A stretch of 64,000 bases of DNA from Escherichia coli (GTDB lineage: Bacteria; Pseudomonadota; Gammaproteobacteria; Enterobacterales; Enterobacteriaceae). Within the stretch, counting starts at the first letter, position 1. Each line of letters starts with the position of its first letter. The stretch is taken from assembly GCF_044324785.1 (NCBI RefSeq), contig NZ_CP172127.1; one strand, given 5' to 3'. Positions 21,634 to 22,146 of this stretch are shown here, piece after piece. The notes under the pieces were generated by a model, which was given only the letters and a program-made list of their open reading frames with translations, was not told where the DNA came from and ran no database searches. Position numbers and translations under genes: made by a program.

Positions 21634-22146
21634 TTAGCTGAGGCGTTGAGGGCCAGCACGGATGCCTTGCGCCTGGCTTATCCAGACGGGCGTGCTGAAT
21701 TTTGCTTGAGGGGTAAAATGCGCATAATCAATGCGATACCCCTTTTCAGACGGCGTGCCTTCCTGGGTCAACAGCGCGCTGAGCGTATCCAGTAATGCAA
21801 GATGTTGCGCCTGAAGAGGCAAAGATTCTTCAGCAACGGGCAGCGTTTGCGGTGCCATTGCGAAGGAAAGATGACGGATTACCGTGCGAATGGCATGTTG
21901 ATGCCAGTAATCAACGGAATAGTTCGAATTCGGGCGACGCGTGTTCGCTTCCAGCAAGGCCAATTGACCAAAGTTAACTTTGGCTGAAGGCTCGTGGTTG
22001 CGGGTTGTCGCTTTTGCGGGCGCGTTTGGTTCGGCGGCGTTGCTGAGCGCAGGCAAACCTAAACTCGCCGCGACCATCCCTAATAAGAGATGCGGCCAGA
22101 AGTAGCGTTTACCAAACTGTCGCCAGCGCGTCAGTATTCCACTCAC
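21634..22146 (-). CDS. secM: Secretion monitor leader peptide SecM (GTG start)
   Basis: 170 aa from the GTG at 22144-22146 (V in the track ORF precedes [29 protein letters not shown]). Ends [21 protein letters not shown]. 61 bp upstream of secA. Confidence 0.9.
21649..21699 (-). promoter_or_regulatory. SecM ribosome-arrest motif coding segment
   Basis: Encodes [17 protein letters not shown], the established elongation-arrest sequence that controls secA translation. Confidence 0.85.

Follow-up and report, generated by a model that had tools for sequence, protein, structure and literature searches.

The secM gene upstream of secA in an Escherichia coli genome: its GTG start codon, its arrest peptide and a possible RNA structure at its 5' end

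The reading frame upstream of secA in this Escherichia coli genome offers several candidate start codons, and the locus raises the question of which of them opens the gene, and whether the product is SecM in its standard form. The window is the whole stretch of DNA that was analyzed, 64,000 nt in length. A 513-nt ORF runs on its minus strand from 22146 to 21634, with GTG as its first codon (22146–22144) and TAA as its stop (21636–21634). The locus was assigned to E. coli secM, secretion monitor and cis-acting regulator of the translation of secA, with the gene in its standard form (probability about 0.97), and nothing in the window sequence speaks against this assignment.

Gene identity and surroundings

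The gene and its immediate downstream neighborhood comprise the following features:
21634–22146, minus strand: secM coding sequence, 170 codons and a TAA stop (from the ORF reading, NF002799, PF06558 and RefSeq)
21573–21633, minus strand: secM–secA spacer, 61 nt
18867–21572, minus strand: secA, the regulated downstream gene, 901 aa, with its ATG at 21572–21570

The secM product was matched by the NCBIfam equivalog NF002799 ('secA translation cis-regulator SecM') over residues 3–169 with 231.2 bits (cutoff 100), and by Pfam PF06558 (SecM) with 195.9 bits (cutoff 25). The 901-nt secM region was 100% identical to E. coli strain N3 and was found in 5424 of 5426 complete E. coli genomes, and the RefSeq secM of N3 (WP_000014320.1) maps to exactly the interval of the coding sequence given above, on 100%-identical DNA. 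WP_000014320.1 is also annotated in O157:H7, Nissle 1917 and two other lineages; K-12-like strains carry WP_000014321.1 instead. The feature in the window thus coincides exactly with a curated gene and is no chance pattern; the gene is an already known and ordinary one.

secM lies directly upstream of secA on the same strand, 61 nt from the secA ATG, and lpxC ends at 22377, giving the gene order lpxC–secM–secA. The spacer, which a first-pass annotation of this DNA had described as preserved at 61 bp, did measure 61 nt (21633–21573), as in K-12; spacers of 57–68 nt were found in other genera.

Relative to K-12 SecM (b0097, NP_414639.2 = WP_000014321.1), the window has the same lpxC–secM–secA context, GTG start, 170 codons, arrest motif and 61-nt spacer, and 169 of the 170 residues are identical, the sole replacement being T170S (Thr ACC in K-12, Ser AGC here; 21637–21639). 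At the DNA level, the gene differs by a further 11 silent changes, the 230 nt upstream of it by 7 changes and the spacer by 1. Since Ser170 is present in all other genera aligned and is the family consensus, the Thr170 of K-12 is the derived form.

Short-type SecM (NF038363 / PF10818 'SecM_small') is likewise encoded upstream of secA, with an N-terminal signal and a C-terminal arrest motif, and has weak N-terminal similarity to the protein in the window; membership in this type was rejected, with scores below the cutoffs of both NF038363 (25.9 against 45 bits) and PF10818 (20.9 against 26.1 bits). The SecM of the window is of the long type, with about 130 residues from signal to arrest site, and fits the long class of PMC10987492.

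Identity of the whole window with strain N3 was considered and rejected, as overall identity was 99.3% and the differences were clustered in blocks, a pattern that looks like a recombination mosaic. Several long stretches are identical to N3, including 15871–23955 with secM inside it. In the N3 record, mraY and ilvI are pseudogenes through 1-nt deletions (mapping to 32966 and 42540); the window lacks these deletions, and both of its genes are intact. Elsewhere in the window, setA (1179 nt, in the sgrT–leuD interval in K-12) is absent, leaving a leuD–sgrT gap of only about 107 nt (51003–51109), and a 189-aa ORF lies between sgrR and thiB (53217–53786, minus strand), where K-12 has only 163 nt; this ORF is annotated as the T3SS effector EspY2 in strain N3 and had no NCBIfam match.

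The initiation codon

Two features mark the start of the gene:
22144–22146, minus strand: GTG initiation codon of secM (GTG in 81 of 81 sequences scored, zero entropy at its three positions)
22154–22160, minus strand: Shine–Dalgarno-like GGGATGG, about 7–8 nt 5' of the GTG

For comparison, secM loci from 80 other species were anchored on the conserved N-terminus; these 80 were the closest of the loci listed, with 238 further secM loci found beyond them. GTG was present at the homologous position in every one of the 81 sequences scored, namely those of the window, of K-12 and of 79 among the 80 other species; the locus outside this count, L038, has Val at the start position, its codon not having been read. 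A stop codon stands immediately 5' of the GTG in the loci of 17 species, the upstream frame is open for 15 codons or fewer in 53 loci, and in E. albertii and the cryptic Escherichia clades it is closed at codon −16. Among 78 distinct sequences, entropy at codon positions 1, 2 and 3 was 1.74, 1.76 and 1.72 bits in the 25 codons upstream of the GTG, against 0.13, 0.06 and 0.58 bits in secM codons 2–24. Upstream entropy is thus flat, and that of codons 2–24 is low and periodic, so that conservation and three-base periodicity switch on exactly at the GTG. Eleven more distant homologues (roughly 30–55% identity, from a representative library) had a GTG start in 6 cases and an ATG one codon downstream in 5; the GTG is therefore fixed in the 80 closest species, and is no requirement of the family.

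GGGATGG was predicted to form an anti-SD duplex of −6.5 kcal/mol with the 16S tail, within the top ~3% of random 15-mers from the window, and it is the only SD-like sequence among the candidate starts tested, the others giving +0.4 (upstream TTG), +1.9 (GTG at codon −25) and +1.9 kcal/mol (ATG at codon 24, hereafter ATG24). A purine-rich GG[A/G]TGG / AGGTG motif is kept at equal spacing in other genera. Beginning inside GGGATGG is a four-codon, out-of-frame mini-ORF (ATG GCA ATA ACG TGA; 22143–22157, minus strand), the stop of which overlaps the secM GTG (GTGA) and the ATG of which is GTG in Citrobacter and Salmonella; it is probably a by-product of the SD sequence.

A PDB chain named 'Secretion monitor' matches SecM residues 1–165, and in a Ribo-seq paper (10.1101/520783) secM is taken to be an ORF of 170 codons in which arrest occurs at codon 165. 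On the sequence evidence, secM translation starts at the GTG at 22146; initiation there, yielding 170 residues, agrees with the comparative data and with the identical RefSeq annotation. The first-pass annotation had likewise named the gene as secM with a GTG start, a call borne out by the alignment, the onset of conservation, the SD-like sequence and RefSeq; the two checks that it had proposed gave, for the orthologue alignment, no support to an upstream start and, for the inspection for a ribosome-binding site ahead of the GTG, the GGGATGG described above. A literature search on the secM start codon returned no explicit GTG/GUG statement. A study by Sarker, Rudd and Oliver from 2000 on the SecM start and signal peptide is said to be the source of the revised start.

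Initiation at the internal ATG24 (22077–22075), which would give a 147-aa protein and which we take to be the original 'gene X' annotation, is very improbable. The codon is kept in 70 of 71 distinct sequences, the Pfam SecM model, 147 positions long, begins its alignment at residue 24, and about ten cluster representatives in a library of 1.8 billion proteins start at Met24. Against this, the protein encoded by codons 2–23 is nearly invariant, while the codons themselves vary synonymously (four codons for R14, with variation also at Y15, Q10, G12 and G3); ATG24 has no SD and lies in the stem of a conserved predicted hairpin, NF002799 extends to residue 3, the PDB SecM chain begins at residue 1, and the K-12 SecM protein record stands at version 2 (NP_414639.2).

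The region upstream of the GTG contains three features:
22147–22299, minus strand: non-coding in-frame extension of 51 codons, the source of the 221-aa 'longest ORF' (no periodicity, no SD)
22298–22350, minus strand: lpxC intrinsic terminator, a GC-rich hairpin and a U9 tract
22190–22198, minus strand: extended −10-like element TGATAAGAT, a candidate secM promoter proposed from the alignment

The longest ORF of the secM frame had been described in the first-pass annotation as 221 aa from an upstream ATG. Its length (221 aa, 21634–22299) was as described; its first start-type codon is TTG (22299–22297), no in-frame ATG was found between the upstream stop and the secM GTG, and upstream the frame offers just one more start-type codon, the GTG at codon −25 (22221–22219). 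The TTG is made up of the last two U's of the U9 tract of the lpxC terminator and a G; the terminator hairpin folds at −28.2 kcal/mol (z = −5.06, with 0 of 200 shuffles as good). In a gapped alignment of the lpxC–secM intergenic region, indels between genera ranged from 0 to 70 nt and were not multiples of three. The block TTAATG[A/G]TAA[G/T]ATTTGT, which contains TGATAAGAT, is kept between diverging flanks in Escherichia, Citrobacter, Salmonella and Intestinirhabdus. A consensus promoter scan called no sigma-70 site upstream of secM, TGATAAGAT included, and the element is put forward as a candidate promoter from its conservation. It sits 3' of both upstream start candidates, and this position suggests, but does not prove, a secM transcript that lacks both of them.

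A start at TTG 22299 or GTG 22221, giving a SecM of 221 or 195 aa with an N-terminal extension, is the least probable of all readings and already conflicts with the comparative data: in 8 of 8 E. coli sequences checked the frame stays open over 56 upstream codons, and some automated public gene calls begin at the −25 GTG ('MLWT...'), but stop codons occur immediately before the secM GTG in 17 species and within 15 codons of it in E. albertii and the cryptic clades, the extension has neither conservation nor codon periodicity and carries non-triplet indels between genera, both upstream codons are without an SD, the TTG belongs to the terminator U-tract, NF002799 aligns to the long ORF from residue 54 only, and most of the over-long database calls have a frameshifted or chimeric 3' end.

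Putative signal peptide, arrest peptide and the predicted secM–secA helix

With the GTG as the start, the product and its mRNA contain the following elements:
22036–22146, minus strand: putative atypical long Sec signal peptide, codons 1–37 (from identity to K-12 and near-invariance across genera)
21649–21699, minus strand: arrest peptide F150–P166, 17 residues (direct translation)
21637–21650, minus strand: 5' arm of the regulatory helix, CUCAACGCCUCAGC, which starts at base 2 of codon 166 (Pro) and extends through codon 170 (Ser)
21581–21594, minus strand: 3' arm of the regulatory helix, GCGGGGCGUUUGAG, in the secA ribosome-binding region

The N-terminus has a basic n-region (R7, R9, K13, R14, H19), a hydrophobic core (L20–L34) and SNA before AEP, and residues 1–37 are those of K-12 SecM and nearly invariant across genera. 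A 37-residue SecM signal peptide with its cleavage site was reportedly described by Sarker, Rudd and Oliver in 2000, and cleavage in this allele would be expected by analogy with the published K-12 work.

Codons 150–166 hold an intact arrest motif, followed by exactly four codons (QRLS) and the stop, as the first-pass annotation had stated. The segment fits the published motif F150xxxxWIxxxxGIRAGP166 (PMC10987492); F, W and GIRAGP were invariant in a 20-protein alignment, and GIRAGP was present in 80 of 80 other-species loci. Ribosome structures with the SecM arrest peptide are available (PDB 8qoa, 3jbu, 3jbv, 9vvi). According to PMC10987492, the stalled SecM ribosome disrupts a stem-loop that sequesters the secA SD, and active Sec machinery engaging the SecM chain cancels the stall.

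An mRNA helix that would occlude the secA SD region and overlaps the stall site was predicted in the window, without covariation. In the minimum-energy fold, 21650–21637 pairs with 21594–21581; the 3' arm contains an invariant UGAGA that ends 7 nt before the secA ATG. Across 64 species, the helix was paired in 93.3% of cells, against 34–47% with the partner slid by 1–3 columns, and its variation consists mostly of C-to-U changes on one side, giving G–U pairs. No covariation was detected in the helix in these 64 species (shuffle control equal to observed), because both arms are almost invariant, and the support for the helix is therefore limited to its conserved potential to pair. The long-range helix between secM and the secA SD was not recovered as a consensus by RNAalifold from the 3' alignment of the 64 species, and the thermodynamic z-score of the 3' region was modest (−1.74). 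A local spacer hairpin (CUCCGC/GCGGGG) was rejected as no better supported, being 85.7% paired with less covariation than shuffles. In 42 of 64 species the G of the Ser170 codon AGC forms a pair with the 3' arm, a G–C pair at the end of the helix that is lost with the ACC of K-12. The conservation of the predicted helix fits the published stall-and-unmask mechanism.

Under that mechanism, translation would begin at GTG 22146, guided by the upstream GGGATGG, and would yield a pre-protein of 170 residues that has a long, basic Sec signal peptide at its N-terminus. Once F150 to G165 had been made, with Pro166-tRNA in the A site, FxxxxWIxxxxGIRAGP would jam the exit tunnel and the peptidyl-transferase center, and elongation would stop. 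With Pro166 in the A site, the ribosome would extend over the entire 5' arm; codons 166–170, otherwise paired with GCGGGGCGUUUGAG upstream of the secA ATG, would be held under the stalled ribosome, and stalling would therefore open the helix and expose the secA ribosome-binding site. Engagement of the signal peptide by the Sec machinery, with pulling on the chain, would release the stall and let the helix re-form, and with the helix re-formed SecA synthesis would fall, providing feedback control of secA by secretion capacity. Stalling at Gly165/Pro166 and its release by Sec-dependent pulling are known for the K-12 protein (PMC10987492; 10.1101/520783; PDB 8qoa, 3jbu, 3jbv). For this allele, both are expected because the motif is identical to that of K-12 and the protein agrees with it in 169 of 170 residues.

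VemP (Vibrio) and MifM (Bacillus) follow the logic of SecM: each is a substrate of the very pathway that it monitors, and its nascent chain, by stalling the ribosome, frees the SD of a translocation gene lying downstream (PMC10987492); they differ from SecM in having unrelated sequences and in regulating secDF2 or yidC2, not secA. Neither was matched in the searches run here.

A putative RNA structure at the secM 5' end

The early codons of secM coincide with two predicted elements:
22067–22123, minus strand: conserved predicted RNA structure over secM codons 8–27 (from frozen synonymous sites and pairing)
22092–22075, minus strand: core hairpin CAUCUC(U/C)–4 nt–(A/G)GGGAUG, enclosing ATG24

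The core hairpin pairs the His19–Leu20 codons (CAUCUC) with the Gly23–Met24 codons (GGGAUG). Among 71 distinct sequences, R9 was always CGA, P18 CCG, H19 CAT and L20 CTC, G23 was GGG in 70, and residue 13 was AGA in all 69 sequences in which it is Arg; the neighboring R14, A27, Y15 and Q10 use two to four codons freely. The structure model was paired in 99.4% of cells, against 35–53% in slid controls, with the reservation that it was derived from the very sequences scored and that protein conservation of PHLLLGM fixes much of the 5' sequence. The loop-closing pair covaries between two synonymous Leu sites (C–G 26, U–A 26, U–G 10, other 2), and both pair states occur inside Citrobacter. In the distant homologues the hairpin was predicted at the same place in 11 of 11, sometimes in a shifted register, and in one of them (L100) a C–G pair was swapped for A–U. 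Two models of the outer helix fitted equally (99.4% and 98.9%) and were indistinguishable, and the single-sequence fold of the element had a z-score of only −1.38. A further small hairpin, in which G and U of the GUG start would pair with A and C of codon 6 (ACG, Thr6), was 88% paired, had no covariation, and had one pair broken in half the species.

Selection on the RNA rather than on the protein is suggested because synonymous sites are invariant, the loop-closing pair covaries, and the GTG is unvarying in the 80 closest species. An alternative is selection for rare codons (CGA, AGA, ATA), which would explain part of the frozen-codon pattern. That secM is subject at its 5' end to a second kind of control, so far undescribed, in the form of a conserved mRNA structure over codons 8–27 that buries AUG24, is accordingly proposed as a tentative reading, with the odds against it. 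An Rfam scan of 21400–22500 gave no match at E ≤ 1, and a literature search on a secM 5' RNA element found nothing. To our knowledge, the secM–secA model has so far included no conserved, structured RNA at the 5' end of secM.

If present, such a structure could tune SecM initiation or block internal initiation, and in E. coli it could compete for CAUCUC with the identical GGGAUGG of the secM SD region. A TraDIS study (PMC5821084) noted an unexplained 66-bp insertion-free stretch in secM, for which its text and supplements give no coordinates, and the structure might explain this stretch. A second control layer, if true, would carry modest weight, the secM–secA pair being a model of nascent-chain sensing.

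The first-pass annotation had regarded the locus as an annotation trap rather than a novelty, and this proved apt, with both over-long and too-late starts present in public protein sets (calls from the −25 GTG and from Met24: P0005, P0007, P0030, P0034; P0122, P0132, P0142 and others), and with the boundary of Pfam PF06558 itself starting at residue 24. A longest-ORF rule adds 51 spurious codons to secM, and a first-ATG rule drops 23 real ones, among them those for the basic part of the putative signal peptide. The finding shows a textbook regulatory gene to be intact in this strain, with its boundaries correctly drawn, and otherwise has very little import; its practical value is as a caution for ORF-based annotation, both errors being found in public collections and the ATG24-type boundary in the Pfam model.
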